Shown here piece after piece: positions 8,136 to 40,231 of a stretch of 64,000 nucleotides of DNA (its first letter is position 1; the number at the start of each line of letters is the position of its first letter). The notes beneath the pieces are model-generated. The model worked only from the letters and a program-made list of their open reading frames with translations. It was not told the origin of the DNA and did no database searches. Made by a program: the position numbers and the translations under genes. The DNA is from Candidatus Gastranaerophilales bacterium (GTDB taxonomy: Bacteria; Cyanobacteriota; Vampirovibrionia; Gastranaerophilales; Gastranaerophilaceae), in NCBI GenBank assembly GCA_944323705.1, contig CALUTM010000002.1, positions 542 to 64,541 on the forward strand, given 5' to 3'.

Positions 8136-8145
8136 AAAACAGTCC

Positions 8146-14891: not shown

Positions 14892-14909
14892 AAATGATAA
14901 ACTAAAATT

Positions 14910-16058: not shown

Positions 16059-17756
16059 TTAACTCAAAAATAATTGTTTATTTATATAATCTTTAATATA
16101 CGCCCCAATACCGCCTTCGGGTAAAAAGAACCATTGATTAATAATCTTGTTTCTGGTCTCTTTTAATTTGTCGTTATTATTGGTAAAAATTTCATATAAA
16201 ACCGATTCAATATCATCCGTTTTTTGAATTTTGTACATGCCTTCCCTTAATTTAAGCCCGAAATCGTTAAAAGGCATACGACTTTGACTCTCCAAAAGAA
16301 CTATCGGTTTCCCGCTCACAAAATATTCCGCTAAAAAAGATGAACAGTCCGTAATTAAAATATCAGACGTCTTAAAAATATCATAATAATTTCCGAGAGT
16401 ATACGCATTACCGTTCGGAAGCTCACGCCACTTTTCTATATATTCATCATATTCTGCGGGTGTCATAAAATTCACGGCTTCACATTTTGATTTCAATACA
16501 GGGTGCGGTTTAATAAGAAATGAGTACTGCGGATGATTTTTCGCAAAATCAAGGAAAAATCCCGCATGTTCAACAAAATTGGACATTCCGAATCCGCCGT
16601 TTCTTTCTATCGAATGATGAGGAGCGTATATAATTCTCGGTTTTTTATGTTCGTCATCTTTCCACAATTTTTCAATATCGGGATTTATCGGGTCTAAATA
16701 GGCATCCATCTTAGGATATCCCGTTACATAGAGAATATCTTTGTTTTTAAGATTGGTACCTTTCTCATAAAATGTTTTGTGCCACTTACTTTCCGAAAAC
16801 ATTGTCCAGAGATTTGAACAAAAATTTCTTGGAGTAGTTGTTCCCCAACACTTGCTCTCTACCATATTAAACCCGTATGATATGGCACAAGTCAATGCAA
16901 ATTCGGATGTTACGGACGGCGGAATTTTGTGAACATCCACAAACCACGGATGGGTATAAAAAATTATATCTGCACCTAATTCCTTAAGATTGATACATAC
17001 TTCTCTCTTATAATCGTATCCGTCAATAATAGGCATATTGCGTTTGGAGAAAAACTCTATATCTTCTTTTTGCGGATAAATTTTATCCTTAAACCTCGTT
17101 GTTAAAGGCAGTGTGACAAGAAGAAGCTCAAACCTGTCGTCTTTTTTAAATTCATCATAAACAGACTGCCAACCCCATTTTTGATTACTTTCAACAATAA
17201 AAATAATTTTTATCTTGCCTTTTTTATTTCTCAATCGTTCAAGAACTTGCAAATAATTGTATTTGGAATTGTATTCTATATTATTACAGGCAAAAAAGTA
17301 TTTTAAAGTCTTGGCAGGATTTTTAGTAAACTTCAAATACCTCAATGCAATTGTTGTTTTCATTGCCAGTGCGTGTAATTTGTTCTTCAATGACAACTCG
17401 TTTATATACCTGTATTCTTTGTTTTCATGGAAGAAATCAAAAGTATTGAGATAGTTAAGACAAGTCAGGTGATCGAATACCGTAAAAATCAAAACATCGT
17501 AATCAGTACTGTTCAACTCCGAAGGTCTTACGGTATTAAATCCCAGATAAGAATCAGGTTTATTTTTTTCATACTTAACATCACATACCGCAACGACATT
17601 TAACTTATTTTTTACGTCATAAAGCTCAACAATTTTGTCAAACAAAAGCCCGCAACCGTACAAAATAACTTTTTTATTTTTGTATAGTCTTGACCATTGC
17701 TCAAGTTTGGCTTCAAAATTATGTTCTTTCAGATAGCTTTCATAAATAGAATTCAT
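16059..17756 (-). CDS. CDP-glycerol:glycerophosphate transferase family protein with N-terminal Rossmann-like module
   Basis: IIYAPHH, IKPHP, DILITDCSSFLAEYF..GKPIV; N-terminal KKVILYGCG...VVAVCD. Confidence 0.82.
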   Translation of the reverse strand: MNSIYESYLKEHNFEAKLEQWSRLYKNKKVILYGCGLLFDKIVELYDVKNKLNVVAVCDVKYEKNKPDSYLGFNTVRPSELNSTDYDVLIFTVFDHLTCLNYLNTFDFFHENKEYRYINELSLKNKLHALAMKTTIALRYLKFTKNPAKTLKYFFACNNIEYNSKYNYLQVLERLRNKKGKIKIIFIVESNQKWGWQSVYDEFKKDDRFELLLVTLPLTTRFKDKIYPQKEDIEFFSKRNMPIIDGYDYKREVCINLKELGADIIFYTHPWFVDVHKIPPSVTSEFALTCAISYGFNMVESKCWGTTTPRNFCSNLWTMFSESKWHKTFYEKGTNLKNKDILYVTGYPKMDAYLDPINPDIEKLWKDDEHKKPRIIYAPHHSIERNGGFGMSNFVEHAGFFLDFAKNHPQYSFLIKPHPVLKSKCEAVNFMTPAEYDEYIEKWRELPNGNAYTLGNYYDIFKTSDILITDCSSFLAEYFVSGKPIVLLESQSRMPFNDFGLKLREGMYKIQKTDDIESVLYEIFTNNNDKLKETRNKIINQWFFLPEGGIGAYIKDYINKQLFLS

Positions 17757-17767
17757 AACGTTCTCCG

Positions 17768-18883
17768 CTAAATCAATTCTTTCGGAATTGCATACAAAAT
17801 AGTTTCGTCATTATCAGGCGAATATTGCCCTATCTTGAATACGTAATCCTTAAGTAAATTATGCAGATATATCGGGATATCAAGCATATCATTGTCCGAA
17901 TGATAGATGGAAATTGCCATCTGAGGTCTGAATTTAAGGAGCGTATTTTCCCCGCCTTTTAAAGCACGCAGTTCAGCCCCTTCTATATCCATTTTAATAA
18001 AATCAACTTTTGCAATTTTTCTTCCCTCTACAAATTCATCTATGGAAACCGCATCAACTTCAAAACTTTTTTCGGAACCATTTTTATTGAATTGAGGATT
18101 TATACCTGAAGAATACGGAGCTGCAACATTCTGAGTAAAAACAAGTCTCTCCCTTTTATCCCACATTGCATAGGGTATAATTTCAAGCTCTTTCATTGAA
18201 TCTATGATATGTGCAAGCGATTTATTTTTCACTTTTTCATAAAGAAGTTCAAATGCATAAATCTTTTTCAGGTTCTTAAACAATTTCTTGAATATAACTG
18301 TATTCAAACCGTTAAACATTCCACCTTCAATTACTACTTCTATTGCATCATAATTAATATAAGATGTGTAATGTTTAATTGTTCTTTTTCTGTCCGGTGT
18401 TATGTTATGCATCTTCAGAACGTACTGTTGAAGCTTTTCCGTATTACCGCTGATTCTTGCTTCAATGAGATCTCTATATAGTACTCTGTCGTCTTCCGTA
18501 TCAAGAAAACCCAAAACCTCCGACAATTTGGACGGGATAAACTGATACCTTTTCAAAAGATTTTTAGATATTCTAATATAGTTGTTAATATCATAATAAA
18601 ATAAAACCGCATCAATAACCGTACTGTCTGAACGAGTCGAAACAACCATATAATTGAACTTATCTCTAATCAGTCCCAAATCATCAGGTCGATATATTTT
18701 TACCGAATCAATACAGCCTTGCTTGTAAGAATCAATATACGCTCCAATTTTAACATCTTTTCTAAACTCGGCAAGTCTTTCTTTTATAGAAATTCCCGCA
18801 TTTGCTGCTCCCCAAATGCATACAACGGCATTTTGCGGAATGTGTGAAAAAAAATCCTTTTCTTCTTGTGTTAATTCTGACAT
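17768..18883 (-). CDS. FkbM family methyltransferase with N-terminal Rossmann-like module
   Basis: VVIEGG, VSIDEF, DFIKMDIEGAEL.ALKG, MAISIYH. Confidence 0.88.
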   Translation of the reverse strand: MSELTQEEKDFFSHIPQNAVVCIWGAANAGISIKERLAEFRKDVKIGAYIDSYKQGCIDSVKIYRPDDLGLIRDKFNYMVVSTRSDSTVIDAVLFYYDINNYIRISKNLLKRYQFIPSKLSEVLGFLDTEDDRVLYRDLIEARISGNTEKLQQYVLKMHNITPDRKRTIKHYTSYINYDAIEVVIEGGMFNGLNTVIFKKLFKNLKKIYAFELLYEKVKNKSLAHIIDSMKELEIIPYAMWDKRERLVFTQNVAAPYSSGINPQFNKNGSEKSFEVDAVSIDEFVEGRKIAKVDFIKMDIEGAELRALKGGENTLLKFRPQMAISIYHSDNDMLDIPIYLHNLLKDYVFKIGQYSPDNDETILYAIPKELI

Positions 18884-18985
18884 AAACCCCTCATCCTCTC
18901 ATAAACATGGTATCAGACTTAGAATTTTGTGTCAATTTGGTATTTTATGCTATTATTATATAATTAAATTTGGGGATTATTTTTT

Positions 18986-20005
18986 ATGACAGATAATTTG
19001 AATAAAATTTTTGTTGAAAATAAACATTATATAGAAAAATTAAAAGAGAAGCTTAGGGGTAAAAAAGTAATACTATACGGAACCGGAAAATTTTTTAAAC
19101 TCCTCAAATCTAATGATGTTTTTGAGAATTTGGATGTTATAGGCGTATGCGACAAAAAGTATCTGCCGGAAGATGAAGAGAGAAAAGAATTCGGATATAA
19201 CGTAATCGCACTTGAACACCTCACTTCTCACAAAACAGCTTATATCCTTATTACAACTTTGGAACCGTTGTCTGTTATAAGAACACTAAAACGATTAAAT
19301 ATTGAAAAAACTATTCCTATAATAAAAATATCAGCCTGGAAAAGTTTGAAATTTCATATAAAAACATTTTTCAAAAAAACTTTTAGAGCAAGAAATAATA
19401 CTTTTGTATACATAAAAACCAACGGGAAAAAAATTTACAACCCGAAAATTAAAAATCTAAAAGTAAAATTTGTGGGCAGTAATAATTATATAGAAATTCA
19501 AGGACCTATTCTTATCAAAGAAAAAATGTATATTTCCTGCATAAATGATTGTAAAATACTCATCAACAATCACAACCGATACAGAAAAATGAAAATTTAT
19601 GCGGGACATAACAGTACCGTCGAAATAGGAAGCGGCACTACGGCAGAAGATGTCATAATAATATTAAAAGAAAGTCAGGGCAACAGGGTTATTATCGGCA
19701 AAAATTGTATGCTAAGTTATGGCGTATTTATTAGAACGGATGACAGCCATACAATTTACAACACGACAACCAAACAGGTAATAAATGTTTCTAAGGATGT
19801 TGAAATAGGTAATCATGTATGGCTAGCCTCCAATTGTCAAATCTTAAAAGGCTCCGCCATTCCTTCCAATTGTGTTGTCGGAACAAATTCGGTTGTCACC
19901 AAAGCCTTTAATGAAGAAAATTGTGTTATAGCCGGAAATCCTGCTAAAGTCGTGAAACGGGACATAAACTGGGACAGAAGAAATAACAGGAATTTTCCTA
20001 CTTAA
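18986..20005 (+). CDS. Hexapeptide-repeat acyltransferase with N-terminal Rossmann-like module
   Basis: DSHTIY, IGNHVW, NSVVTK, IAGNPAKVVK; N-terminal KKVILYGTG...VIGVCD. Confidence 0.85.
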   Translation: MTDNLNKIFVENKHYIEKLKEKLRGKKVILYGTGKFFKLLKSNDVFENLDVIGVCDKKYLPEDEERKEFGYNVIALEHLTSHKTAYILITTLEPLSVIRTLKRLNIEKTIPIIKISAWKSLKFHIKTFFKKTFRARNNTFVYIKTNGKKIYNPKIKNLKVKFVGSNNYIEIQGPILIKEKMYISCINDCKILINNHNRYRKMKIYAGHNSTVEIGSGTTAEDVIIILKESQGNRVIIGKNCMLSYGVFIRTDDSHTIYNTTTKQVINVSKDVEIGNHVWLASNCQILKGSAIPSNCVVGTNSVVTKAFNEENCVIAGNPAKVVKRDINWDRRNNRNFPT

Positions 20006-22826
20006 TCCTCTTTAGAGATGAGAGAAAATTAAAATTAATAACATCACCGTCTACTGTCGTTAAAAAGACCTGTGCACTATCTTCACCGACTTTGAGCTCA
20101 GGTATCTGCGAAAGCTCTGAAGCATAATAGTTCGCATCATTTCTTCCGCTATGTGAAATCCTGTTTGCCAGACTGTTTAATGAAATATTTCTCAAAAATC
20201 CCGCAAAACCCGTGTCTTTATCCGAAAATTTCGTATAAATTCTTAATGATGCATCGTTGGTCATCAAATCATACCTTCCGACAATATAAGTCGCAAGTTC
20301 ATTTGCGGCGGATTTTATCCGCATCGGCATTATAACATTATCCTTAAGCTTCAATTCACCTGAAATAACATCAAAGCTGCCGTCAGGAATACTTACCAAA
20401 TCGCCTATAGTTGCAGGGCTAATCATAGCAAGCGGGTTTCTGAAGAGTGAAGCGGCTTTCAGAATATACTCAACATACCCGACTTTTTCTATAGAACCGT
20501 TTTGGATGTCAAATAAAATTTGTCCGTTAAGCTTCATACTCTCATCGGTGCTGATTTCAATCAAGCCTCTTGCCTTACCCGTAATTTCTCTCGGAAGTCC
20601 GAGTACTGCTCCCGCCATAACATCAGAGTTTACGTCTTTTACGCCTAATCTTAAATAATATAATTTCTTGATTAAATCAGCCCTAACCTTGAGTGTTGAA
20701 ATCCCCTCCGCAATATCAAATTTGTTTGATTGAATCTGCAAAAGTCCGTCTTTATCAAGAGTCAAATTAGCATGGAGGTTTCCGAAATCTACCTCCTTAT
20801 ATTTGCCTTTATTGAGATGCAACATACACTTTTCTATAATAATCAACCCTTTTGTAAAAGTCGGAGCGTTATCATCACCAAGCATTTCTTCCGAAATATC
20901 TTCTGTTTGATTATCGGATTCCAAAGCCTGTTTCGCAGGCTCAGTCGTATTTGTGTTTGCAAGATTTGCCGCAAGCATCTTCTCCAAATCGACATTATCA
21001 ACAGTCAAATTAACGCTCTTTACAACAATCGGAAGTCTTAAATCATTTACAATATATCCGTTAAAATCGTACTTTGTTTTCTTAAATCTTCCCTGTGCAA
21101 TCGCACCGAGCTTATCACCTTTTGCCCCTATTTTTGCAGTCTTAATAAACAGTCTTTGAGCGGGAACAAAAACTTTATCAAAAGAAATCACACCGTCCAT
21201 TTTGGGAAATTCGCCATTATTATCAATACTCAATTCGCCGGAGACAGTACCTTTTCTGAAAATCTTTTGACAAGCCAGAAAATTCAAAAACTCACTCGGC
21301 AACGGACGCGGAATATTTAAACTCATATCCAAAAGCTTCATATTATCAGCCATATCAAGATTACCCTTGATTGCAAGTACCGGAGTCATGTTCTTTTGCA
21401 GCTTATCCGTTATATAATAATCAATTGTATTAATTCTCAAAATATTTTTTACCACGCTCAAATCAAGCTTAAATAAGGTTTTGTATTTTTCAAGCACCAT
21501 AGACTGCTCTCCAAGTTTAAACCCTTCACCCTCATTAAGCAGAAAATACCATACAACATCACAAGAACCGTTTTTGGAGGTCAAAGTCAACCTCGAGCCT
21601 GCATCTCCAACCAAACCTATAGGAGCCCCGAGGAGTTTGGAGGCATAATTTTTAAAGAAATCATCATTAACAAAAATATCGGAAACTATTTCAGTATCAC
21701 ATGTTTTCCAGTAATCTTTTACACCTCCAAGCATGGCAATACTGTTTTCTTTTTTGTTATTATAATACCCCTTAAAGTCTTTTAAGATTATCTCGGTATT
21801 TCCAATCTCAACTATGCCCTGCGTAATCTTAACGGGCATATTCAGTAAATCTTTAATTTTAAATTCGGATTCGTTTACGTTAACATCGCCTCTGATACTG
21901 TTTTTGCTGAGATGGAGATTAAAATCGACACCGCCCGTCACATCAACAATCGGAGCTAAAAGTTCCTTACCGTTCGGCAATATGATATTGGAAGTCAAAA
22001 TGTTATAAATATCTCTTGCACTGAAATCCTTTGACGAAATATTTAATTCAACACCCTGTTTTCTTGAAGCTGCTGCATTAATAACTATAGTCGATTTATC
22101 GACCTTAATTGGGAACTTATCTACATGCAGCTCCCCGCCTCCCATATAAATACAGTTCTTATCATCCGCGGAAATAACAATTTTTTCCGTACCCTTCGCC
22201 ATTTCAAAATCAAAATCAAAATGCAGCGGATAAACAGGAGCCTCTGAATCCGCTATTTTTATATTCTTGCTGCCTAAAATCTCACGATAGTTTCTCGTTC
22301 TGTCCAAAACAAGGTCTTTTGCGGCAAACTTTATTGCAATATCAGGATTATCATATATTATTAAACATTTTTTCACACCCAAAAGTGCGGAAAATATGTC
22401 AATATTAAAATCACAGGGTTTGGCTTCTTTCTTTTGTTCCTGCTGCGGGAAAAGTGCGATTAAATCAGCAGTATCAACATAGATATTCTCAGCAAGAACT
22501 TTTTTTATAATAATCTTTTTGGCAAAAATTTCACACAACGAAATTTCCGTATCAAGGTTTTTAAGATTCAAAATTTCTTTGTTATCTTTTTTCAACGAAA
22601 TCTCTGCAAGTTTAAACTTTGGATTAATCCCCGTTTTCAGGAAGGGCTTTTCAATCCGCAAATCAGCCTTCAAAGCTTTTTGGGCATACTGTTCCACCTT
22701 TTCTAAAACCAGAGTATTAGAAACAAGTGCGGGAATAATAAACATATATGTAATTACCGCCACACCAACCAAGAGTACAACTGCGGAAGTAATACCGATT
22801 AAAAATTTTTTTGCCCGACTCTTCAT
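19998..22826 (-). CDS. AsmA-like/YhdP-type envelope-spanning protein
   Basis: N-terminal TM anchor, long beta-rich body, C-terminal FDVISGELKLKDNV...IVGRYDL resembling the AsmA C-terminal region. Confidence 0.6.
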   Translation of the reverse strand: MKSRAKKFLIGITSAVVLLVGVAVITYMFIIPALVSNTLVLEKVEQYAQKALKADLRIEKPFLKTGINPKFKLAEISLKKDNKEILNLKNLDTEISLCEIFAKKIIIKKVLAENIYVDTADLIALFPQQEQKKEAKPCDFNIDIFSALLGVKKCLIIYDNPDIAIKFAAKDLVLDRTRNYREILGSKNIKIADSEAPVYPLHFDFDFEMAKGTEKIVISADDKNCIYMGGGELHVDKFPIKVDKSTIVINAAASRKQGVELNISSKDFSARDIYNILTSNIILPNGKELLAPIVDVTGGVDFNLHLSKNSIRGDVNVNESEFKIKDLLNMPVKITQGIVEIGNTEIILKDFKGYYNNKKENSIAMLGGVKDYWKTCDTEIVSDIFVNDDFFKNYASKLLGAPIGLVGDAGSRLTLTSKNGSCDVVWYFLLNEGEGFKLGEQSMVLEKYKTLFKLDLSVVKNILRINTIDYYITDKLQKNMTPVLAIKGNLDMADNMKLLDMSLNIPRPLPSEFLNFLACQKIFRKGTVSGELSIDNNGEFPKMDGVISFDKVFVPAQRLFIKTAKIGAKGDKLGAIAQGRFKKTKYDFNGYIVNDLRLPIVVKSVNLTVDNVDLEKMLAANLANTNTTEPAKQALESDNQTEDISEEMLGDDNAPTFTKGLIIIEKCMLHLNKGKYKEVDFGNLHANLTLDKDGLLQIQSNKFDIAEGISTLKVRADLIKKLYYLRLGVKDVNSDVMAGAVLGLPREITGKARGLIEISTDESMKLNGQILFDIQNGSIEKVGYVEYILKAASLFRNPLAMISPATIGDLVSIPDGSFDVISGELKLKDNVIMPMRIKSAANELATYIVGRYDLMTNDASLRIYTKFSDKDTGFAGFLRNISLNSLANRISHSGRNDANYYASELSQIPELKVGEDSAQVFLTTVDGDVINFNFLSSLKRIK

Positions 22827-22853
22827 AAGAAAATTATAGCATAAAATCCAATA

Positions 22854-25283
22854 TTATATAAAAAGATTAGAATTAGCAGAGCTGCTTTCATGAATATATT
22901 TTGCGACTCCGCCAATCTCCACTCCGTCAATGAGTTCCTCGGGTTTTATCCCCATAACATCCATTGACATGTTGCACGCAATAAACTTTACTCCTGATTT
23001 TTGAGCCTGCTCAATAAGTTCCCCGAGCGTCGAAACATTTTTCTGCTTCATAACCCATTTCATCATCAAAGAGCCGGCTCCACCCATATTCATTTTAGAG
23101 AGCGTCAATTTATCCGCACCCTTTGGCATCATAAGTCCAAACATTGTATCAATAAAGCCCTTTTTCGCATTTCCTTTTGGTTTTCTTAAAATATTCAACC
23201 CCCAGAAAGTAAAGAATAATGTAACCTCAGCACCCGCAGCCCTTGCACCGTTAGCAATTATCAGAGCGGCAAGAGCCTTGTCTAAATCGTTTGAGAACAC
23301 TACTATTGTTTGAGCGGTTCCGCTCTTTTCTTTCTTAATACCGACAGAGCCTTTTTGAATAACCGCTTTTATTGTTTTCTTATCGCTCTCTAGCTCTAAA
23401 AGACTATTTCCTGTGCTTTCGCACCAGGCAGCAATATCAGATTTAAATCCCCTGTCTGTTGCAATGACTTCTAAGACTTCACCGACATTAATATGTGAAA
23501 TCTCGGAGGCGACTTTCATAATCGGTCCGGGGCATTGCAAACCCGTTGCGTCAATTTTGAAAGCCGCTGACAGTGTATTTGCAGCCGGAATTTTTTCACG
23601 CACTTCAACTTTACCCCGCCTGTCCTTTATAATTTCCTTGTACAGAGTTATTCCTCCCATAAGCGAATAAACATTTGTAAATCCGTATTGCTCAAGAATT
23701 CTTGCCGCAATATAACTCGTATGTCCTGTATTACAGAATAAAACAACCTTCTTGTCCCTCGGGATTTCCTCTAATCTTACTCTTAATTTATCTATCGGAA
23801 TATTAATTGCCCCCTCGATTGTGTTTATTTTAAAAACCATCTCGGGTCTTACGTCAACAAGCAAACTTCCCTCAATATCTTCAAAAAAGGCAGGTTTTAC
23901 AAAACCTTTTAAAATATTGTCCGCACTCATTCCCAAAATATTAACGGGATCTTTTGCGGAGGAGTATGGCGGTGCATAACAAAGTTCACTGTCCAAAAGC
24001 TCTTGAACCCCGCCACCGTTTCGCATAACGGAAGAAACTACATCAATTCTTTTTTCAACACCATCCTGCCCAACCGCCTGTGCACCAAGAATTTTTCCCT
24101 CAGGCGTAAATAAGAGTTTGAACATAATCTGCACAGAATCAGGATAATACCCCGCATGGTCACGTCCGAAAATAATTGTTTTCCAGTAACTAATCCCCTT
24201 TGCCCTGAGTTGTTTTTCATTATTCCCGACCGCAGCCGCCGTCATACCAAAAACCTTCAAGACGGAAGAACCTTGAGATTTTTTATAAACCGATAATCCC
24301 TCATCGGCTTTATCCCCCTCATATTTACCCTCATATTTACCCCCGTATTTACCCCTATATTTACCCCCGCAAATATTATCGGCAATAATTCTGCCCTGTC
24401 TGTTTGCAGGTCCCGCAAGCGGAATAAAAGTATTTTCATCCGTAACAAAATCTTTTACAACTACGCCGTCACCGCCTGCATAAATATCGGGTACAGAAGT
24501 TTCCATTCTCTCATTCACAATAATTCCGCGTTCTATATCAAGCCCGATTGATTTCGCAAGCCCGAGTTCGGGTTTTACTCCGATTGCCATAATGACAATA
24601 TCAAACTCAACTTCTTTTTGAGAATTAAGAACAATTTTATTACCCGCAAACTCCTTTACCGCATCCGATAAAATAAGTTCCACGCCGTTATCACGCATCT
24701 CATTTTGAACAAATGCTGCAGCCTCATAGTCAACGGGTGCCAAAATCTGATTTTGAGCTTCGATTAATGTTGTCTTAAGCCCCATTTCAGCAAGATTTTC
24801 AGCCATTTCAATTCCGATAAATCCGCCTCCGATTACAACCGCCTTTTGGATATTATTGTTTCTTATAAAATCTTTAATCCTGTCTGCATCATAAAGAGTC
24901 CGTACAGTAAAAACTCTGTCTTTTGGCATACCTTCAAAATCAGGAAGAATCGGATTTGCCCCCTGAGCCAAAACAAGCTTGTCGTACGAGAGTTTTTCAC
25001 CGTTTTTTAGGATAACATTTTTAGATTCAACGTCAATCCCTATGACTTCACTGTTTAAACGAACATCTATGTTAAACCAGCTCTTAAATTTCTCGGGAGA
25101 AGAGACAAGCATTTTTTCTCTGTCATTAATCACCCCCGAGGTGTAATAAGGGAGACCGCAGTTTGCAATAGAAATCTCATTTGTCTTTTCTAAAATAACA
25201 ACTTCAGCTTTTTCATCAAGCCTTCTGATTCTTGCAGCTGCACTGGCACCGCAGGCACCGCCGCCTATAATAATTACCTTCAT
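22854..25283 (-). CDS. CoA-disulfide reductase-rhodanese-TusA/SirA-DsrE-like fusion
   Basis: GGGACG FAD loop, ANCGLPY redox Cys, GGGFIG, YAPPYS, rhodanese LFCNTG, TusA DATGLQCPGP, DsrE FFTFWG...IACNMSM. Confidence 0.9.
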   Translation of the reverse strand: MKVIIIGGGACGASAAARIRRLDEKAEVVILEKTNEISIANCGLPYYTSGVINDREKMLVSSPEKFKSWFNIDVRLNSEVIGIDVESKNVILKNGEKLSYDKLVLAQGANPILPDFEGMPKDRVFTVRTLYDADRIKDFIRNNNIQKAVVIGGGFIGIEMAENLAEMGLKTTLIEAQNQILAPVDYEAAAFVQNEMRDNGVELILSDAVKEFAGNKIVLNSQKEVEFDIVIMAIGVKPELGLAKSIGLDIERGIIVNERMETSVPDIYAGGDGVVVKDFVTDENTFIPLAGPANRQGRIIADNICGGKYRGKYGGKYEGKYEGDKADEGLSVYKKSQGSSVLKVFGMTAAAVGNNEKQLRAKGISYWKTIIFGRDHAGYYPDSVQIMFKLLFTPEGKILGAQAVGQDGVEKRIDVVSSVMRNGGGVQELLDSELCYAPPYSSAKDPVNILGMSADNILKGFVKPAFFEDIEGSLLVDVRPEMVFKINTIEGAINIPIDKLRVRLEEIPRDKKVVLFCNTGHTSYIAARILEQYGFTNVYSLMGGITLYKEIIKDRRGKVEVREKIPAANTLSAAFKIDATGLQCPGPIMKVASEISHINVGEVLEVIATDRGFKSDIAAWCESTGNSLLELESDKKTIKAVIQKGSVGIKKEKSGTAQTIVVFSNDLDKALAALIIANGARAAGAEVTLFFTFWGLNILRKPKGNAKKGFIDTMFGLMMPKGADKLTLSKMNMGGAGSLMMKWVMKQKNVSTLGELIEQAQKSGVKFIACNMSMDVMGIKPEELIDGVEIGGVAKYIHESSSANSNLFI
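24309..24368. repeat. In-frame 12-bp tandem repeat (ATATTTACCCCC-like, 4-5 units) encoding GGKYRGKYGGKYEGKYEGDK
   Basis: Units ATATTTACCCTC, ATATTTACCCCC, GTATTTACCCCT and ATATTTACCCCC at 24321-24368, preceded by TTTATCCCCCTC. Confidence 0.9.
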
Positions 25284-25292
25284 CAGACCCCG

Positions 25293-27728
<2,436 letters not shown>

Positions 27729-27835
27729 TCATCCCCCTCAATAAAAATCTAATCTGTATACTACTATTGTAGCACAAAAGCAAAATTTGCATAAGTAAAT
27801 ATTTTAGAGTACCATAATAAAGAGGAGAAACGGGA

Positions 27836-28159: not shown

Positions 28160-28200
28160 TTTTTTATTATGTAGCTGATAATATGAGGGAGTTCACAGTT

Positions 28201-28272: not shown

Positions 28273-28277
28273 ATTTT

Positions 28278-28304
28278 AAAAGACTTCCACGGCGGGAGTC
28301 TTTT
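28278..28304 (+). terminator. Rho-independent terminator after tRNA
   Basis: AAAAGACTTCC-ACGGC-GGGAGTCTTTT followed by more Ts. Confidence 0.75.
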
Positions 28305-28341
28305 TTAAAAGGGCGGGAGTCTTTTATACAAGGATAAGGAT

Positions 28342-30317: not shown

Positions 30318-30379
30318 TTATATATCCCTTAAAACAATAATAGCAGGCAATTTTTATTTTTACAAGTTTTGTTACAAAT

Positions 30380-31201: not shown

Positions 31202-31232
31202 CAAAAAAATTTTTCAGAGCTTTTTATTAAGT

Positions 31233-31862
31233 ATGATACCCAACAATATTAATTTCCGCGGAATACCCATAGCAAAAACAAAAATTGCGGAAAACAATTT
31301 AACACTGTACAAATTAACCTCCCGGGATAAAGAATTTACGGACAGACTTTACCACAGTCTCAACCTGCCCGAATTATATCCGGGATTTAATAAACTGCAA
31401 TACGGGATTTGGGATGAAGTCACACATTTGGGACTTTCTCAGACTTATGAAAAAAATCAAAATACTATGCTGATTACGGCAGATAATCGTCCCTGCGGAG
31501 TATTAAACTATTCGGCACACTCCCCAAAATTCAACCTTAATTACGTAAGCACATGGCCGATTAAAATCGGGCAAAAAGTTCCGCTTGCCGGAAAAACATT
31601 ATTTATGGAATTTTTCAGACAATTTCTTAACAGCGACTGCCGTACAATTGAACTTTGTGCACTCAAATACGCACCGTTCAGTGCAATAAGCAAATATTTA
31701 TCTTTAGGCTTCAAACCACGAGGAGGCGATAATTTTCGAGAGCTCATGCGTACCGATAGAGAAAGTGCCGCAAAAACACTGCAAAAACTTGAACAATCAA
31801 TAAACCTGTCTTCCGTCAAGGACAGTAACGATTATGACCTAATCCAAAGACTGGAGATATAA
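31233..31862 (+). CDS. GNAT-like acetyltransferase with N-terminal INFRG leader
   Basis: LNYVSTWP...PLAGKTLF (motif A-like) and AISKYLSLGF (motif B-like). Confidence 0.55.
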   Translation: MIPNNINFRGIPIAKTKIAENNLTLYKLTSRDKEFTDRLYHSLNLPELYPGFNKLQYGIWDEVTHLGLSQTYEKNQNTMLITADNRPCGVLNYSAHSPKFNLNYVSTWPIKIGQKVPLAGKTLFMEFFRQFLNSDCRTIELCALKYAPFSAISKYLSLGFKPRGGDNFRELMRTDRESAAKTLQKLEQSINLSSVKDSNDYDLIQRLEI

Positions 31863-31866
31863 AATA

Positions 31867-33420: not shown

Positions 33421-33521
33421 AATCTCAAATCCTCTCATAATTCAACATTATCCCGATTATAGCACAAAAGTTACAATTATTGCCTCAAAAAGAGTTTAAA
33501 TATCATAACCGATTACGGCAA

Positions 33522-33839
33522 CTACTCCAAACAACCCGCAATAATTTTGTATATAATTCTCAACTCTTCATCCGTTGCCCTATCCATTAAGCCGATTATT
33601 TTATCGTACAAACTTGCCCTGTCCCGCAGGTGTTCCGTCTTAAAGAGTTTCGTATAATCAACCCCGAGTGCGTAAGCGAACTTTTCTATCAAATCAGCTT
33701 TGGGAAAACTTTTGCCCGTTTCAATATGACTCATGTGCTTAGGATCAATTCCGACCATTTCCGCAAGTTGATATTGCGTGATTCCTTTTTTATTCCTTAA
33801 TTCTTTTAGCCTTAATCCGAAATCTTTTTTTAAGTCCAT
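33522..33839 (-). CDS. XRE-family HTH regulator
   Basis: RLKELRNKKGITQYQLAEMVGIDPKHMSHIETG. Confidence 0.88.
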   Translation of the reverse strand: MDLKKDFGLRLKELRNKKGITQYQLAEMVGIDPKHMSHIETGKSFPKADLIEKFAYALGVDYTKLFKTEHLRDRASLYDKIIGLMDRATDEELRIIYKIIAGCLE

Positions 33840-33989
33840 AAGTCCTCCCCCATGAGAATAATCGGAGTAATAAAACTTATAAACCGTATTTAAAACATTT
33901 TTTATTCAAAATATCTATATTAAATATTGTATTTCTGTATTTGATATGGTAAAATCTTTGCTAAATATGTTTGCAATAAGGAATTAGTC

Positions 33990-35237
33990 GTGGAAGTAAA
34001 ACTAAGTATCGTTATTCCCGTATACAATGTAGAAAAATATCTGAGAGAGTGTTTGGACAGTATCTTAAATCAGACTTTCCAGGATTTTGAGATAATTTGT
34101 GTGGATGACGGCTCGACTGACAAGTCGCTAGAGATTTTGCAGGAGTATAAAAGAAAAGACGACAGGTTTGTAATTTTGCAGCAAAGACATTCGGGTGCGG
34201 GAAGTGCAAGAAATAACGGAATAAGGCTTGCCGAGGGGAAATATATTCAGTTTCTTGACTCCGATGATTATTTTGAACCAACCTTGCTTGAAGAGATGTA
34301 CAATCACGCAGAGAAGTTTGGTGCGGATTTGACGGTCTGTTCATCAAGAAAAGTAGATGATGAGGGAAATATAACAGAGACAGGAAGTCCGAATTTCCCT
34401 ATAAATATAGACAAAGTCCCGATGGAAAAGGTTTTTAATCGAGAAGATTTTAAGGACGATATATTTTCCTTATTTACCCCCGTTGTTTGGAATAAATTAA
34501 TCAAAAAATCGTTCTTGAAAGAAAATAACCTTGAATTTCCGCCGCTTACGATTTATGAAGACATTGCTTTTATGCACAGCCTTGTTATTTCAGCCGAAAG
34601 AATTGCGGCATTTAATAAAGAACTTATCAATTACCGTTTTAACAGACCTGGAAGCCTTGTAAGTACCCGCTCAAGCCATACAATTGATGCCGTTAAATCC
34701 TGTATGTATTTAGGCGAATTTCTTAAATCAAGAGGATTTTTACCTGAGTATGAAAACGCATACCGAAAAGTTTTCATCAACCACATAAGGGCAGAAATAA
34801 GTTATTGTAACGAGGATGAGTACAAAAACTTTCTTCAAGAGTTTAAAACGCTTCTGCCTAATGATTGGCAAAAATATCAATCTGCTTTAAGAAAAGACTA
34901 TATCACGCCCGAATATCTCAAGAAATTTATCGGGAACAAAAAAGTAATGCTCTGGGGCGGAAGTCTTTTTATTAGGCAGGTGCTCGAAAAAGAAACGGAG
35001 AAGAACCCGAATATTTTAGGAATAATTGACAGAAACGAAGCCTCAGCAGGCAAACAGTTCTGTAATTATACCATTTACCCGCCTGATGCGATAAACGAAT
35101 TAAAACCTGACGGAGTGATTTTGACGGTTCTATCCAATAACGAATCCATTTATGAGTCATTAAAAGAGGAGTTCAGAGAAAAATATCCGACTGTGGAGCT
35201 TTTGCCGAACATCTTTGAAGAGGAGTTAAAGTATTAA
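33990..35237 (+). CDS. GT2 glycosyltransferase with C-terminal Rossmann-like module
   Basis: SIVIPVYN, VDDGSTD, ARNNG, FLDSDD; C-terminal KKVMLWGGSLF...ILGIID...YPP...LKPD. Confidence 0.92.
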   Translation: MEVKLSIVIPVYNVEKYLRECLDSILNQTFQDFEIICVDDGSTDKSLEILQEYKRKDDRFVILQQRHSGAGSARNNGIRLAEGKYIQFLDSDDYFEPTLLEEMYNHAEKFGADLTVCSSRKVDDEGNITETGSPNFPINIDKVPMEKVFNREDFKDDIFSLFTPVVWNKLIKKSFLKENNLEFPPLTIYEDIAFMHSLVISAERIAAFNKELINYRFNRPGSLVSTRSSHTIDAVKSCMYLGEFLKSRGFLPEYENAYRKVFINHIRAEISYCNEDEYKNFLQEFKTLLPNDWQKYQSALRKDYITPEYLKKFIGNKKVMLWGGSLFIRQVLEKETEKNPNILGIIDRNEASAGKQFCNYTIYPPDAINELKPDGVILTVLSNNESIYESLKEEFREKYPTVELLPNIFEEELKY

Positions 35238-36475
35238 TGCCTAAAATTTCAGTTATTGTTCCCGTATATAATGTGGAAAAATATTTACAAGAATGCTTGG
35301 GCAGTATTCTTAACCAAACATTTCATGATTTCGAGGTAATTTGCGTTGATGACGGCTCAACCGACGAGTCCTTGGCAATTTTACAAGAGTATAATAAAAA
35401 AGACGACAGGTTTGTTATTATACGGCAAAGACATTCAGGGGCGGGGGCTGCAAGAAATAACAGAATAAAACTTGCCAAAGGGAAATACATTCAGTTCCTT
35501 GATGCGGATGATTATTTTGAACCGACTTTGCTTGAGGAAATGTACAACCATGCGGAGAAATACGGTGCGGATATGACTGCCTGCTCCATTAACAGAATTG
35601 GCAAAGAAGGGAATATTATCAGTTATAAAAACCCCAACTCTCCTATTAATTTCGATAAAACTCCCTTGGAAACACCGTTTTGTTGGGAAGATTATAAAAA
35701 AGACATCTTTTCTATGTTTAATGTAGCCATCTGGAACAAACTCTATCTGAAAGAGATGCTTGTCAATAACAATCTCACATTTCCCGATTTAACAAGCTGT
35801 GAAGATGTTGCATTCGGGTATATTTCAAGAATTTGTGCAAAAAAAATATGCGTGTTTGATAAAAAACTTGTTAATTACCGTCAAGATAGAGAGGGCTGCC
35901 TCACAAAAAAACAAGAAAACCACGCCCTAAATGTCATCAAAGCCGCTAAAATCGTTGAAGATTTTTTGAAAAAACAGGGCATATATGAGGAACTCAAAGA
36001 AAGTTACACAGAAGCCATAAAAAGGCATTTAGGTTGGACAATAGGAAGCTGCAATGATGAACAGTATCAGATATTTGAACAAACATTAAAAAGCCTGATG
36101 CCTACAGAATGGAATTTATTTTGGTCCGTTTTGAGAAAAAATAATGCAATGCTTGAATATATAAAGAAATCTACCCGAAATAAAAAAATTATGTTATGGG
36201 GTGCGAGTCTCTTTATTAAAGAAGTTTTAGAAAAAGAAACCGAAAGAAATCCGAATATTCTGGGAATAATTGACCGTAATACGGAGTGTACGGGGAAAAC
36301 CTTAGGTAACTATAATATTTATCCCCCCGATATGATTCATAAATTGAAACCAGACGGAATAATTTTAACAGTTTTACATAACAATAAATCAATATATGAA
36401 TCTTTAAAACAAGAGTTTAAGGAAAAATACCACGGAACAGAATTATTACCAAATATCTTTGAGGAACAGCAATGA
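35237..36475 (+). CDS. GT2 glycosyltransferase, tandem paralog of 33990
   Basis: SVIVPVYN, VDDGSTD, FLDADD; near-identical N-terminal third and C-terminal module. Confidence 0.92.
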   Translation: MPKISVIVPVYNVEKYLQECLGSILNQTFHDFEVICVDDGSTDESLAILQEYNKKDDRFVIIRQRHSGAGAARNNRIKLAKGKYIQFLDADDYFEPTLLEEMYNHAEKYGADMTACSINRIGKEGNIISYKNPNSPINFDKTPLETPFCWEDYKKDIFSMFNVAIWNKLYLKEMLVNNNLTFPDLTSCEDVAFGYISRICAKKICVFDKKLVNYRQDREGCLTKKQENHALNVIKAAKIVEDFLKKQGIYEELKESYTEAIKRHLGWTIGSCNDEQYQIFEQTLKSLMPTEWNLFWSVLRKNNAMLEYIKKSTRNKKIMLWGASLFIKEVLEKETERNPNILGIIDRNTECTGKTLGNYNIYPPDMIHKLKPDGIILTVLHNNKSIYESLKQEFKEKYHGTELLPNIFEEQQ

Positions 36476-37713
36476 ATAAAATTCCGATAGTTTTGGCGTC
36501 AGACAGAAACTGTGCTATGCAAATGTATATAACAATCTTGTCTGCAATCGCAAATAAAAAGAAAGATAGTTTTTATGACTTTTACTGCCTCATTCCGTCC
36601 AAATTTTCCAAATTTGTAAACCAAAAATTTAAAAGGCTGATAAGCAGGCATCAGAATGTAAATTTAACTTTTATAAGTATGAAAAATATATTTTCTCACC
36701 TGCCAATGCAAATCGAACATATTACCTCCCCGACTTTTTATAGGTTAAAAATCGCGGAATTATTACCCCAATACGACAAAGCACTTTATCTTGATATTGA
36801 CACAATTGTATTAGAAGATTTGACTCAATTATTCAATACCGATTTAGGAAACAATTATATAGGAGGTGTCCCTGCAGCAAGCTACATAATAGGATATGAC
36901 CGTTTAAAAGATTATTTTGACGATATCGGTCTGAAGGATATGGCATATTATATTAATGCAGGTGTCATACTCTGGAATCTTAAACAAATAAGACAAGAAA
37001 ATGTAACAGAAAAACTTTTGGCATTAACAAAAAATACTTATAAATTTATGGATCAAGATATTATAAACCTTGTTTGTTACGGCAAAATAAAACATTTGGA
37101 TTTTAAATATAACCTCATGACACCCTATAAACACCGCTTTTTAGACAAACCTGAATTATGCAATAAAATATATGAGATATATGGTGAAACAAATTTAAAA
37201 AACGCAATAAAAAATCCTGTTATTATTCATTATGCCTCAAGCCTTAAGCCCTGGAACGATAAAAAAGTATGGCTCGGAAATTATTGGCAGCATTATGCAA
37301 AAAAGGCTCCTGCCAAAATCAGGATTAAAGAAAGTTCAAGTACAAGATTTTTAAACCAAATCTCTGAAAACAAATTCAAAAAACTTGTCTTTTGGGGGGC
37401 AAGTCTGTTCCTGAAAGATTTAATAGAAACAAAAAGAATAAAACGCCATAAAATCTTGGGTATAGTAGATGCTGACCCGTCTAAACACGGTAAAAAAATC
37501 GGTGACTTTCAAATATATTCTCCACAAGACTTGAATGTGTTAAAACCCGATGCAGTTATTTTCGCAATTAAAAATCGTAATGAGGATATTTATCCACAGA
37601 TACAAAATATTCTGAAAAAAGAATACCCGAATATAAAACTTTTACCAAATGCGTTTAACTTCAAGACAAAACGAAAATACAACAAAACAGACGCAAGAAA
37701 GGATGAAGCATGA
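36472..37713 (+). CDS. GT8 glycosyltransferase with C-terminal Rossmann-like module
   Basis: ALYLDID, INAGV, DQDIIN, IIHYA...KPW. Confidence 0.9.
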   Translation: MNKIPIVLASDRNCAMQMYITILSAIANKKKDSFYDFYCLIPSKFSKFVNQKFKRLISRHQNVNLTFISMKNIFSHLPMQIEHITSPTFYRLKIAELLPQYDKALYLDIDTIVLEDLTQLFNTDLGNNYIGGVPAASYIIGYDRLKDYFDDIGLKDMAYYINAGVILWNLKQIRQENVTEKLLALTKNTYKFMDQDIINLVCYGKIKHLDFKYNLMTPYKHRFLDKPELCNKIYEIYGETNLKNAIKNPVIIHYASSLKPWNDKKVWLGNYWQHYAKKAPAKIRIKESSSTRFLNQISENKFKKLVFWGASLFLKDLIETKRIKRHKILGIVDADPSKHGKKIGDFQIYSPQDLNVLKPDAVIFAIKNRNEDIYPQIQNILKKEYPNIKLLPNAFNFKTKRKYNKTDARKDEA

Positions 37714-39089
37714 AATTTGCAAGAATGAGACAAATGTACAAATACAATCCCGCAAGCTGGAATCTGGAAGGAAATATCGGCGATTGCATACAAAATATTG
37801 CAATAGAAAATTTATATAAAAAATTGGGTATAACCGATTTAATCCAAATCAATCGCGACGATTTAATCAACTATCACGGAGAAAAAGCAATTCTTCCCAT
37901 GCAAGGATGGTTCGGTAACCTTCACGATTCATTTTTAGCATCCTGGTCAAAAGATATTATCCCAATATTTATAGGATTTCATCTAAATGATGCCATGAAC
38001 TGCAGAGATGTTTTTGTTGAAAAAGATTTACACAACAAAATTAAAAACTATGAACCAATCGGATGCAGAGACAGAAGCACAAGAGACTTTCTTAGCCGAC
38101 TCGGCATTGAAACATATTTCTCCGCTTGTGCTACGCTTACCCTTCCCAAAAGGACAAAAGAACCGAAAGACGGAAAGATATTTCTGGTTGATTTATCTCC
38201 AAAAGCAATGGATATAATTCCTAAAAAAATCAGACAACAGGCAGATGAATCCATTACACACATATATCAATTCACAAAATATCCGCTAAGCGAAGAAGAA
38301 GTTGCAGACTACGAAAACTACACAAAAAAAATCCTCGAAAGATATTATAATGAAGCAAAATTGGTAATAACTTCCCGCATACACTCGGCTATGCCCTGTA
38401 TCGCAATGGGAATTCCCGTTATTTTTATCCACTCAAAACTGAAAGATTCCCGCTTGGATGTGCTGGACGGAATTATTCCAAAATATTCCCCCAACGACAA
38501 GTATGCAATTAATTGGAATCCCAAAGCCCCGAATATTGAAAAAATGAAAGAACAAATTATTAATAATGTACTGTACCAAATATGCAAATGTGCTAAAAAC
38601 AACGGTGTTGAAATAAAAACCGATACGGAATATAAAAATAACCTGCACGAAATGCAAAAACTTGATGCTGAACTCGAGAAAAAGGAATTTATTAACAAAT
38701 TAAAATTATTTCCGTCAAGATTTATATTTGGCACAATCGGAGCAATAAGAGATTTTGTATCTTATCAGAGTGCACAATTTAAACTGTTAAAAAACATATA
38801 CCGTCATAAAACTGTTATTTTATGGGGAGCAAGTTTATACTTAGAAAAATTTCTTAAAAGATATAAAATAAAAAATAAAAACATCGTCGGAATTGTTGAT
38901 AAAAACTATGAAAAACATTTCCAAAAACTTGGCGAATATACAATCTATCCTCCCGAAAAGATTGCAGAATTGAATGCGGATACGATAATATGCACCATTA
39001 AAAATCATCACGAAAAAGTGTATCCGCAAGTAAAAAAATATATTGAAGAGAATTTCCCGGACAAAACAATACTACCCGATATATTTTGA
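37710..39089 (+). CDS. Polysaccharide pyruvyl transferase family protein with C-terminal Rossmann-like module
   Basis: NIGD, IGCRD, VITSRIHSAMPCIAMGIPV. Confidence 0.85.
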   Translation: MKFARMRQMYKYNPASWNLEGNIGDCIQNIAIENLYKKLGITDLIQINRDDLINYHGEKAILPMQGWFGNLHDSFLASWSKDIIPIFIGFHLNDAMNCRDVFVEKDLHNKIKNYEPIGCRDRSTRDFLSRLGIETYFSACATLTLPKRTKEPKDGKIFLVDLSPKAMDIIPKKIRQQADESITHIYQFTKYPLSEEEVADYENYTKKILERYYNEAKLVITSRIHSAMPCIAMGIPVIFIHSKLKDSRLDVLDGIIPKYSPNDKYAINWNPKAPNIEKMKEQIINNVLYQICKCAKNNGVEIKTDTEYKNNLHEMQKLDAELEKKEFINKLKLFPSRFIFGTIGAIRDFVSYQSAQFKLLKNIYRHKTVILWGASLYLEKFLKRYKIKNKNIVGIVDKNYEKHFQKLGEYTIYPPEKIAELNADTIICTIKNHHEKVYPQVKKYIEENFPDKTILPDIF

Positions 39090-39100
39090 GGTGAAATAAT

Positions 39101-40231
39101 ATGATAAAAGAAAAAATGCTACAAGATTTTTTGGACAAAATCCCCAATGAAGGCGAAATATTTATCTTTGGAGCCTGCAAAATTGGAGAAAAAATTTTAA
39201 AGGATTTAGAAATATATAAGCCAAATGTGAAAATAGTCGGTTTTATTGATAATAAAGTCACGGGAAGTTTTGACGGACTTCCTGTACAAAGTCTCAAGAA
39301 TTTTGTAAAAAATGAAAATAAACCGGTAATAATGTCAACAAAAAATGATGAAAGATTAATACTCAATATATTTGATTTGTATAATATTCCGGCAGTTCAA
39401 CTGACAGAAGCTGCAAACCATTACTATCGTTATCTTGCAAATATTTTAAACGACGAAAATTATAAAAAGATAATTAATATTTTTGATAAACGAGAGGACC
39501 GACATCTGTTTGACCTGATTTTTAAAACCCGTATTAAACTTTCGGATTCAAAAGAAATTGAAAATTTCTATTATACCCATTGTGCCACAAAGTATAAAGT
39601 AAATCGTGTTTATAAAAAGCAGTATCTTGATAAAATCAATCAAAATACAATAAAAACACTTTTTGATGCAGGATTCTATGACGGCACTAATGTTATTGCA
39701 TATAATCGCCTGCTTCCGCATTTGGAAAAAATCTGCGGATTTGAAGCCATATACGATATTACAAGAAATCCCTTAATAGAAGAATTCATTTTAGATAAAA
39801 AACTTGAAATTATTCCGTATGTTTTGGGAAACAAAAATGAAGAAATCAAGTTTTGCTTGGAAAAAGATAATTTAGGTGCATCTTTTTGTGAAGGTACCTC
39901 GACAAAGAAAATATCTTCTTCAATAGAAACAGAGAATCGCATAGTTAATATGATTACCTTGGACAAATTTTGTTTTGAAAGAAATATTTTCCCCGATTTC
40001 ATCAAAATGGATATAGAGGGTGCAGAACTCTCAGCCCTCAATGGCGGAATTAAAACCATAAAAAAATGCCGCCCTCAACTTGCGATTTCCATTTATCACT
40101 CAAGCGAAGATTTTGTTAATATTCCGCTTTATCTAAAAGAAAATCTTGAAAATTACAAATTCCGACTCGGACATTATTCTCCGGACCTATCCGAAACAGT
40201 GCTTTATGCAATACCTGATGAGTTAGCGTAA
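39101..40231 (+). CDS. FkbM family methyltransferase with N-terminal Rossmann-like module
   Basis: FDAGFYDG, ITLDKF, DFIKMDIEGAEL, LAISIYH; paralog of 17768-18883. Confidence 0.88.
   Translation: MIKEKMLQDFLDKIPNEGEIFIFGACKIGEKILKDLEIYKPNVKIVGFIDNKVTGSFDGLPVQSLKNFVKNENKPVIMSTKNDERLILNIFDLYNIPAVQLTEAANHYYRYLANILNDENYKKIINIFDKREDRHLFDLIFKTRIKLSDSKEIENFYYTHCATKYKVNRVYKKQYLDKINQNTIKTLFDAGFYDGTNVIAYNRLLPHLEKICGFEAIYDITRNPLIEEFILDKKLEIIPYVLGNKNEEIKFCLEKDNLGASFCEGTSTKKISSSIETENRIVNMITLDKFCFERNIFPDFIKMDIEGAELSALNGGIKTIKKCRPQLAISIYHSSEDFVNIPLYLKENLENYKFRLGHYSPDLSETVLYAIPDELA

Follow-up and report, generated by a model that had tools for sequence, protein, structure and literature searches.

In an uncultured Gastranaerophilales (Melainabacteria) gut bacterium, positions 16059-40231 of the analyzed 64,000-nt stretch of DNA (the window) contain two small groups of glycan-enzyme genes, and each of their eight enzymes carries one copy of an alpha/beta module of ~95-110 aa. 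Locus 1 consists of GPT565, FkbM371, and Hex339. Locus 2 is a single plus-strand operon encoding GT2a415, GT2b412, GT8_413, Pyr459, and FkbM376 (enzyme classes are given in Table 1). The module is a divergent, Gastranaerophilales-specific branch of known accessory domains of glycan enzymes, and its fold is not new. The novelty lies in how the domain is used: it is present on nearly every enzyme of the small variable glycan operons, whatever the catalytic fold or the protein end, and this pattern spans an order of uncultured, flagellated gut relatives of cyanobacteria. Such near-universal tagging suggests organization at the level of the pathway, by common ligand control or by common assembly. 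A reading made from the sequence only had reported a related module of ~90 aa on all eight enzymes. BLASTP, profile hidden Markov models (HMMs), profile-profile alignment, and AlphaFold2 (AF2) models all confirmed its presence, and the measured size was somewhat larger.

The catalytic assignments and module ends of the sequence-only reading agreed with Pfam, which left a span of ~100-200 aa free of matches at the module-bearing end of each enzyme. In an all-vs-all BLASTP, the four C-terminal copies shared 35-38% identity over ~95-118 aa (E ~1e-20). The N-terminus of GPT565 matched the C-terminus of Pyr459 with 44 bits and the module of Hex339 with 42 bits, and the six non-FkbM copies were related at E values from 1e-5 to 1e-65. 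The two GT2 proteins are full-length paralogues with 59% identity. The FkbM N-termini reached only ~20 bits, yet always at the homologous position. When an HMM built from the four C-terminal copies was run against all 271 six-frame open reading frames (ORFs) of the window, the eight enzymes occupied ranks 1-8 (GPT565, 5.7e-9; Hex339, 2.3e-5; next-ranked non-enzyme ORF, 0.54), with FkbM376 (0.044) and FkbM371 (0.42) below significance on their own. A profile of 97 module instances from public proteins without an FkbM domain (the module HMM of Table 1) recovered FkbM376 at 3e-6 and FkbM371 at 4e-4, with the top unrelated window ORF at 0.32. This profile did not match the classical Rossmann proteins of the window, including a double-Rossmann CoA-disulfide reductase. 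In hhalign, 76 non-FkbM modules aligned to 13 FkbM N-termini with a probability of 96.3% and an E value of 1.6e-9 over 77 columns. Since this profile-profile comparison and the predicted fold (see below) agree, the FkbM copies belong to the family. Thus, the eight segments align as one homologous family, in which the FkbM copies are divergent.

Three subtypes were distinguished: the C-type (four copies), the GPT/Hex type (two copies), and the FkbM type (two copies). In the module tree, the copies of GPT565 and Hex339 are sisters, with a Shimodaira-Hasegawa-like approximate likelihood ratio test (SH-aLRT) value of 99. Homologue searches with the GT8 module and with the FkbM module yielded four close relatives each. 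A tail, LLPNIF, is strongly conserved at the end of the C-type copies (e.g., 35205-35225 and 39066-39086); it mostly forms the last residues of the protein and is also found after internal copies, as in a 708-aa protein of the related locus L004. The tail is a short final strand in the model and might serve strand pairing. The GPT/Hex and FkbM types lack it.

The AF2 models of the module show the element order a0-b1-aA-b2-b3-aB-b4-aC-b5. The C-terminal module of GT8_413 was modeled with a pLDDT (predicted local distance difference test) score of 91.5 and contains the helices (H) and strands (E) H4-14, E20-23, H27-34, E43-47, E61-64, H66-72, E76-79, and H85-99. The N-terminal domain of FkbM376 (pLDDT ~90) has the same element order, with H2-12, E18-23, H27-39, E43-49, E60-63, H65-71, E76-78, and H84-93. 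From these models, the module is predicted to be a small Rossmann-like domain that folds autonomously. Across all subtypes, only the Gly ending b1 and the Asp ending b2 are invariant (8, 76, and 95 aligned copies); the Asp lies at the end of strand E43-47 in the GT8 module model. This pair suggests a retained ligand site. The acidic residue that ends beta2 in classical Rossmann domains is thus present in the form of the invariant Asp. The GxGxxG/A loop that follows beta1 in classical dinucleotide-binding domains is absent from the window copies. The C-type has WGASLF at this place, of which only the first Gly is invariant across copies; GPT565 has YGCGLLF and Hex339 YGTGKFF (N-type pattern GxGxxF), and the FkbM type has FGACKIG and WGAANAG (pattern GAxxxG).

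Foldseek searches with the GT8 module model returned 3nkl as best match (TM-score 0.60), along with the NADH domain of Rex/RSP, NAD(P) domains of amine dehydrogenases, VioB, KijD1, and the domain of unknown function (DUF) of WbaP (8t53). The full FkbM376 model retrieved 2py6 first, over the whole length, and its N-terminal domain retrieved Rex, the N-domain of the PglB acetyltransferase (4m98), WbaP, and 2g6t.

A profile search over 1.84 billion representative proteins gave 4,085 protein clusters at E<=1e-3 and 339 at E<=1e-10. The portability claimed by the sequence-only reading was borne out: in public proteins, the module occurs at the N-terminus, at the C-terminus, internally, in tandem, and standalone, and its hosts belong to at least 10 catalytic types. 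Among the 95 best matches, Pfam identified GT2 (39), GT8 (10), class I methyltransferases (6), hexapeptide acetyltransferases (6), radical SAM proteins (5), pyruvyl transferases (4), and FkbM (3) as hosts; the module itself was labeled PF08484 in 31, PglD_N in 6, CoA_binding in 6, and PF22674 in 4. Host architectures in relatives, as parsed by Pfam, include Stealth CR1/CR2 with GT8 and module; Fer4 with FrhB/FdhB, pyruvyl transferase, and module; module with class I methyltransferase; GT2 with module and O-methyltransferase; an N-terminal part of unknown type with module and Capsule_synth (KpsC/S-like); module with a full TagF-like domain; and the standalone module. An FkbM-like enzyme (P0138) bears a clear C-type module (E 8.5e-26). 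Two to three modules per chain were found in 12 of the 95 public relatives, and ~255-aa proteins made of exactly two tandem modules form a family (P0029, P0046, and P0055). Standalone single modules adjoin module enzymes in the related loci L009 (10862-11314) and L033 (10295-10732). The module is therefore portable and non-catalytic. It is separate from the catalytic families of its hosts and not an integral subdomain of them. Further proteins with multiple modules are P0006 (628 aa) and P0060 (699 aa); one public protein has a module, an unassigned middle region of ~230 aa, and then two further modules, and a protein homologous to the catalytic domain of GPT565 has two modules at its N-terminus where GPT565 has one.

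The sequence-only reading had also held the catalytic folds of the hosts to be unrelated. This stands for about five folds and not for eight, because GT2 and GT8 are both GT-A enzymes.

Its expectation that the domain is of a known kind was correct, since relatives are found in PF08484, PglD_N, and CoA_binding_3. Pfam splits this group of accessory domains into PF08484, PF22674 (C2185-like_N), PF17836 (PglD_N), and PF13727 (CoA_binding_3). By sequence, the best match in the PDB was 3nkl for three profiles, made from all eight copies (E 3.2e-8), from 76 non-FkbM copies (5.6e-7), and from 13 FkbM copies (0.004). This structure comes from Vibrio fischeri and shows the cytoplasmic domain at the N-terminus of a WbpM/PglF-like "UDP-D-quinovosamine 4-dehydrogenase". 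The DUF covered by PF13727 occurs in large phosphoglycosyl transferases, such as WbaP, CpsE, and EpsZ, and also in PglF/WbpM. The module and 3nkl/PF13727 have the pattern hhh[YW]GAx...hhhhD...G..hY.P..L in common, and each is a cytoplasmic accessory domain that has no catalytic role in its glycan enzyme. In the C-type module, the glycine loop is cut to GAS, unlike in 3nkl/PF13727. In addition, the PF13727 DUF is found only on the initiating transferase or dehydratase, whereas the module is found on many enzyme types and on every enzyme of the operon. WbaP chains appeared in the PDB profile search at E ~0.1 only. The WbaP DUF is the best-studied relative, with a role proposed only in 2024: it forms a dimer interface and was stabilized by UMP, UDP, and UTP in a thermal-shift screen, and UMP strongly inhibits full-length WbaP, for which allosteric regulation was proposed (PMC10942596). 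For EpsZ, beta-sheet augmentation between two DUFs has been described (PMC12802240).

The Pfam model closest to the module is PF08484 (Methyltransf_14), the C-terminal domain of sugar C-3-methyltransferases such as TcaB9 and KijD1. It scored 23.0 bits (E 7.6e-5) with the GT8 copy, just under its gathering threshold of 23.5 bits, 21.4 bits (E 2.3e-4) with the isolated Pyr459 module, and a weak 14.8 bits (E 0.026) with the GT2b copy; the GT2a, GPT, Hex, and both FkbM copies were unmatched. KijD1 structures were also matched by fold (5t64, 5t67, and 5t6b; Foldseek probability 0.98-1.0, TM-score 0.48-0.54, 95-98 columns), and these were solved with TDP and dTDP-sugar. In KijD1 and TcaB9, the C-terminal domain contributes to the site for the nucleoside diphosphate (NDP)-sugar. 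PF08484 hosts are C-methyltransferases with a Zn ribbon and S-adenosylmethionine, whereas the module hosts of the window are GT2, GT8, pyruvyl transferase, TagF-like, left-handed beta-helix (LbH), and FkbM proteins. PF17836 (PglD_N) is the N-terminal domain of NeuD/PglD/VioB/PglB acetyltransferases, a similar small Rossmann-like fold ahead of an LbH (VioB, 7txp, with TDP-sugar; PglB, 4m98). In Pfam, PglD_N did not match any window copy. The NeuD model TIGR03570 aligned only to the beta-helix of Hex339 (aa 209-321; profile positions 97-202), the best NCBIfam match of Hex339 was WbbJ, again for the LbH part only, and ~60-70 aa separate the module from the beta-helix. Because this beta-helix is of the WbbJ/maltose-acetyltransferase (MAT) type and not of the NeuD/PglD type, the Hex339 module is not an integral PglD N-domain.

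Rex/RSP, which has a ligand-sensing, dimerizing Rossmann domain, was a recurrent Foldseek neighbor of the C-type and FkbM-type models. Unlike Rex, the module has no winged-helix DNA-binding domain and, in the C-type, no GxGxxG, and the identity is 12-21%. Pfam detected no helix-turn-helix (HTH) in any of the eight enzymes, and only the Rossmann part of Rex aligned. The likeness to Rex is a resemblance of fold and not family membership. The structure 2py6, an FkbM methyltransferase of Methylobacillus flagellatus from structural genomics, matched the catalytic C-terminus of the window FkbM by sequence (E 3.9e-13). Its Foldseek alignment to the FkbM376 model covered 413 columns, which suggests that 2py6 has an N-terminal domain and a two-domain layout as well; the global TM-score was only 0.36, and the FkbM N-terminal profile (13 copies) did not detect 2py6 by sequence. 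Isolated N-type and FkbM-type modules gave only noise in Pfam (BrxB, holin, and UMPH-1), and a standalone PF22674 protein from the related locus L001 had only weak, DapB-like matches in the PDB. A literature search found nothing on Methyltransf_14, on WbaP with Rossmann, or on the C-terminal domain of KijD1/TcaB9. With eight copies uncalled by Pfam at its threshold, the family merits a model of its own.

Related loci were found by scanning species genomes with motifs of the four C-type copies, which biases the collection toward this type. We obtained 33 loci, nearly all from gut metagenome-assembled genomes (MAGs) of Gastranaerophilales/Melainabacteria (the best 88% identical), each with 2-6 consecutive, co-directional module genes. 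In 32 gene runs, the module was present on 108 of 116 genes and absent from 8. Only the count of interior genes, 44 of 52, is informative, because the loci were found via the module. GT2 genes of ~290 aa without a module occur in the same operons. In the order Gastranaerophilales, nearly all enzymes of the small, variable, low-GC glycan operons thus have the module, and no flippase, polymerase, transporter, or sugar-nucleotide genes were found in these operons. The sequence-only reading had placed it on every pathway member. This holds for nearly all enzymes and is conserved in the lineage, but the DUF1643 and XRE genes and the flanking genes at 14259-16058 are without it.

The frame of locus 2 is conserved as a divergent XRE regulator, module enzymes, an FkbM enzyme, and DUF1643. 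In 14 loci, an XRE homologue immediately precedes the module operon and marks a conserved left border, and DUF1643 homologues have the equivalent position in 8 loci (L006, L014, L017, L021, L024, L028, L029, and L034). A second island of variable content is locus 1. Its counterpart in L009 consists of other module genes together with genes of an MBOAT and an AlgX-like protein, with orthologues of the metallophosphoesterase and the 382-aa protein (E 1.5e-178) on one side and of the 942-aa AsmA-like protein (E 1.6e-260) on the other. Both loci have a G+C content of 31-34%, compared with 37-40% in their surroundings. Low G+C and conserved sites whose gene content varies among MAGs fit hypervariable, exchanged surface-glycan islands. 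In a tree of 112 module copies, the host-enzyme class changes 21 times, compared with 55-66 times in shuffles, and the genome of origin changes 95 times, compared with 86-97 times. Because the copies cluster by host enzyme and not by genome, the fusions are old and there is no homogenization within genomes. Neither recent local duplication nor gene conversion along the operon was retained as an explanation, since the copies group by enzyme class across genomes.

Several side observations concern these islands. Locus 2 adjoins tRNA-Ala (40979-41051). In L011 and L012, too, the metallophosphoesterase gene immediately precedes module operons. L004 and L024 have overlapping ranges on CALUQE010000003.1; this one Gastranaerophilales MAG has two adjacent module operons with ~10 module genes in ~36 kb, separated by a ParB-like/DNA-methyltransferase-like gene and two small genes. 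In several MAGs, genes for a serine recombinase (Resolvase and Recombinase) and a DUF927-like protein are located a few kilobases downstream of module operons (e.g., L027, 16860-19962; families f4 and f10), and their recurrence suggests mobile elements beside the islands.

We consider it somewhat probable, by analogy with characterized relatives, that the module on every enzyme binds a nucleotide-type ligand at the canonical b1-loop/b2-Asp site and pairs with another module copy. Every pathway enzyme would thereby obtain an equal non-catalytic handle, which could serve joint ligand-dependent control, oligomerization at the membrane's inner face, or both. The basis of this extrapolation is that binding of nucleotides or NDP-sugars and homodimer interfaces are known for the nearest characterized relatives. 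Several points weigh against it. These relatives are only 14-22% identical, with TM-scores of 0.5-0.6; none of the eight window copies reached the Pfam gathering threshold, and the PF13727 model listed no window copy even at E<=10, where HMMER filters may lose very weak matches. Unlike the PF13727 DUF, the module is not preceded by a four-helix transmembrane bundle, and its hosts are soluble. The C-type WGASLF in place of GxGxxG disfavors classical dinucleotide binding, and a regulatory nucleotide sensor would not be obviously useful on FkbM or pyruvyl transferases, by which no nucleotide is used or released. Finally, the count of 108 of 116 is partly built in by the selection of loci through the module. 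It is also possible, though not likely, that the modules are heterotypic docking tags, which bind each other or a scaffold of standalone or tandem proteins and thus bring the soluble pathway enzymes together in one complex on a single acceptor; in that case, the conserved Gly and Asp would have a structural role. The donors differ, so the enzymes of an operon have in common only the acceptor and each other, standalone modules lie beside module enzymes, and the chains with 2-3 copies and the two-module family suggest module-module packing. The DUFs of relatives do form protein interfaces, but those known are homodimeric, and a single operon combines subtypes that are 17-20% identical (C-type with FkbM type, or GPT/Hex type with FkbM type). 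Moreover, module copies do not co-vary by genome, and an invariant b2 Asp is a ribose-binding hallmark of Rossmann folds rather than an interface residue. A plug-and-play assembly, in which the tags associate mutually or with a shared ligand-bearing anchor and standalone or tandem proteins act as adaptors, appears unlikely. If it were true, a tagged enzyme gained by gene exchange would automatically join the common assembly line, and polysaccharide synthesis would follow a docking-domain logic like the one of modular polyketide synthases.

It is distinctly unlikely that the substrate of the enzyme is an NDP- or nucleoside monophosphate-linked sugar whose nucleotide is held by the module, in the manner of the PglD/VioB N-domain or the TcaB9/KijD1 C-domain, so that tailoring and possibly glycosyl transfers would take place on a nucleotide-linked intermediate. 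The fold neighbors VioB (7txp) and KijD1 (5t64 and 5t67), solved with TDP or TDP-sugar, and the closeness of PF08484 are in line with this, and for methyltransferases and the acetyltransferase it is plausible. However, GT2, GT8, TagF-like, Stealth, and KpsC/S-like enzymes already have a site for the nucleotide donor in their catalytic fold, and their acceptors are linked to a lipid or polymer. In the models and sequences, a mostly helical linker of ~60-100 aa separates module and catalytic domain, and the module would therefore not form a wall of the active site; in addition, the Hex339 beta-helix is not of the type that follows PglD_N. Least of all do we expect the segments to be integral subdomains of each enzyme family or a generic Rossmann or chance resemblance, which is highly improbable. 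Divergence is greatest in the FkbM-type copy, which always occurs with FkbM, and the long alignment to 2py6 suggests an N-terminal domain in this solved FkbM structure as well. This is countered by an FkbM-like enzyme with a C-type module (P0138), by the significant cross-family HMM and hhalign scores, by at least 10 catalytic types with the module in varying positions and also alone, by Pfam models of all host families that exclude it, by the shorter GT2 genes without it in the same operons, and by the 97-instance profile, which misses the other Rossmann proteins of the window. As the modules are small soluble domains, the idea of pathway organization is directly testable.

The repertoire of host enzymes, including those of relatives, comprises TagF-like, Stealth, and KpsC/S-like proteins and pyruvyl, methyl, and acetyl transferases, with MBOAT/AlgX in one relative. 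Such enzymes build capsule- or teichoic-acid-like polymers at the cytoplasmic face. Because of this repertoire, we regard a capsule- or teichoic-acid-like polymer of the cell surface, with glycerol-phosphate, pyruvate, methyl, and acetyl groups, as the most likely product, and not a flagellin glycan. Flagellin had been named as a possible substrate in the sequence-only reading, a link that depended on fliD (10591-12327), the only flagellar gene in the window. This gene lies ~3.7 kb from locus 1, with lepA and two other genes between them, and in the 33 related loci, no FliD homologue was found near the operon and no flagellar gene adjoins it. Flagellin glycosylation was dropped as the preferred target, given the lack of synteny with flagellar genes and the capsule/teichoic-acid-type repertoire. 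The window contains no flagellin, flippase, polymerase, or transporter, and its remainder is housekeeping. Anchoring of the enzymes in the membrane by transmembrane helices was likewise dropped, as no such segment was found in any of the eight (Kyte-Doolittle 19-residue mean, maximum <=1.46).

Table 1. Module copies, host enzymes, and neighboring genes without a module (window coordinates)
Feature	Position	Strand	Basis
Module, N-terminus of GPT565, aa ~5-96	17469-17744	-	Module HMM, E 8.5e-16
Divergent FkbM-type module, N-terminus of FkbM371, aa ~7-105	18569-18865	-	Module HMM, E 4.1e-4
Module, N-terminus of Hex339, aa ~11-113	19016-19324	+	Module HMM, E 4.9e-15
C-type module, C-terminus of GT2a415, aa ~294-410	34869-35219	+	Module HMM, E 1.3e-41
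C-type module, C-terminus of GT2b412, aa ~302-409	36140-36463	+	Module HMM, E 5.3e-41
C-type module, C-terminus of GT8_413, aa ~286-396	37327-37659	+	PF08484, 23.0 bits; AF2
C-type module, C-terminus of Pyr459, aa ~355-459	38772-39086	+	Module HMM, E 4.4e-40
FkbM-type module, N-terminus of FkbM376, aa ~3-89	39107-39367	+	Module HMM, E 3e-6
GPT565, 565 aa, TagF-like CDP-glycerol glycerophosphotransferase	16059-17756	-	Pfam Glyphos_transf, aa 319-487
FkbM371, 371 aa, FkbM methyltransferase	17768-18883	-	Pfam Methyltransf_21, aa 200-342
Hex339, 339 aa, LbH O-acetyltransferase, WbbJ/MAT type	18986-20005	+	Pfam Hexapep
GT2a415, 415 aa, GT2	33990-35237	+	Pfam Glycos_transf_2, aa 6-176
GT2b412, 412 aa, GT2	35237-36475	+	Pfam; GT2a paralogue
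GT8_413, 413 aa, GT8	36472-37713	+	Pfam Glyco_transf_8, aa 6-264
Pyr459, 459 aa, polysaccharide pyruvyl transferase	37710-39089	+	Pfam PS_pyruv_trans, aa 103-240
FkbM376, 376 aa, FkbM methyltransferase	39101-40231	+	Pfam Methyltransf_21, aa 212-352
XRE-type HTH regulator, no module, divergent from locus 2	33522-33839	-	Pfam HTH_19/HTH_3
DUF1643 protein, no module, last gene after FkbM376	40245-40724	+	Pfam DUF1643
Metallophosphoesterase, no module, left flank of island 1	14259-14891	+	Pfam Metallophos
382-aa protein, no module, left flank of island 1	14910-16058	+	Conserved flank

The 382-aa protein had no match in Pfam or NCBIfam. Housekeeping genes lie between the two loci, namely those of the AsmA/DUF748-like protein, a CoA-disulfide reductase fusion, gyrB, tRNA-Met, four mixed genes, and metG. 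The AsmA-like protein (19998-22826, 942 aa), which adjoins the counterpart of island 1 in L009, has one N-terminal transmembrane helix and a weak DUF748/AsmA-like match. The adjacent 809-aa fusion (22854-25283) combines a Pyr_redox_2 domain of the CoA-disulfide-reductase type with rhodanese, TusA, and DsrE-like domains and looks like a multidomain enzyme of sulfur transfer. At 42835-45708, a type IIL restriction-modification enzyme of the MmeI family is encoded in full, with each of the five MmeI domains present. At 7719-10407, the gene of a GtrA-like membrane protein overlaps the end of the gene of a 753-aa phosphoglucomutase/phosphomannomutase-like protein; besides the two loci, the window has no sugar-related genes but these two, and both lack the module.

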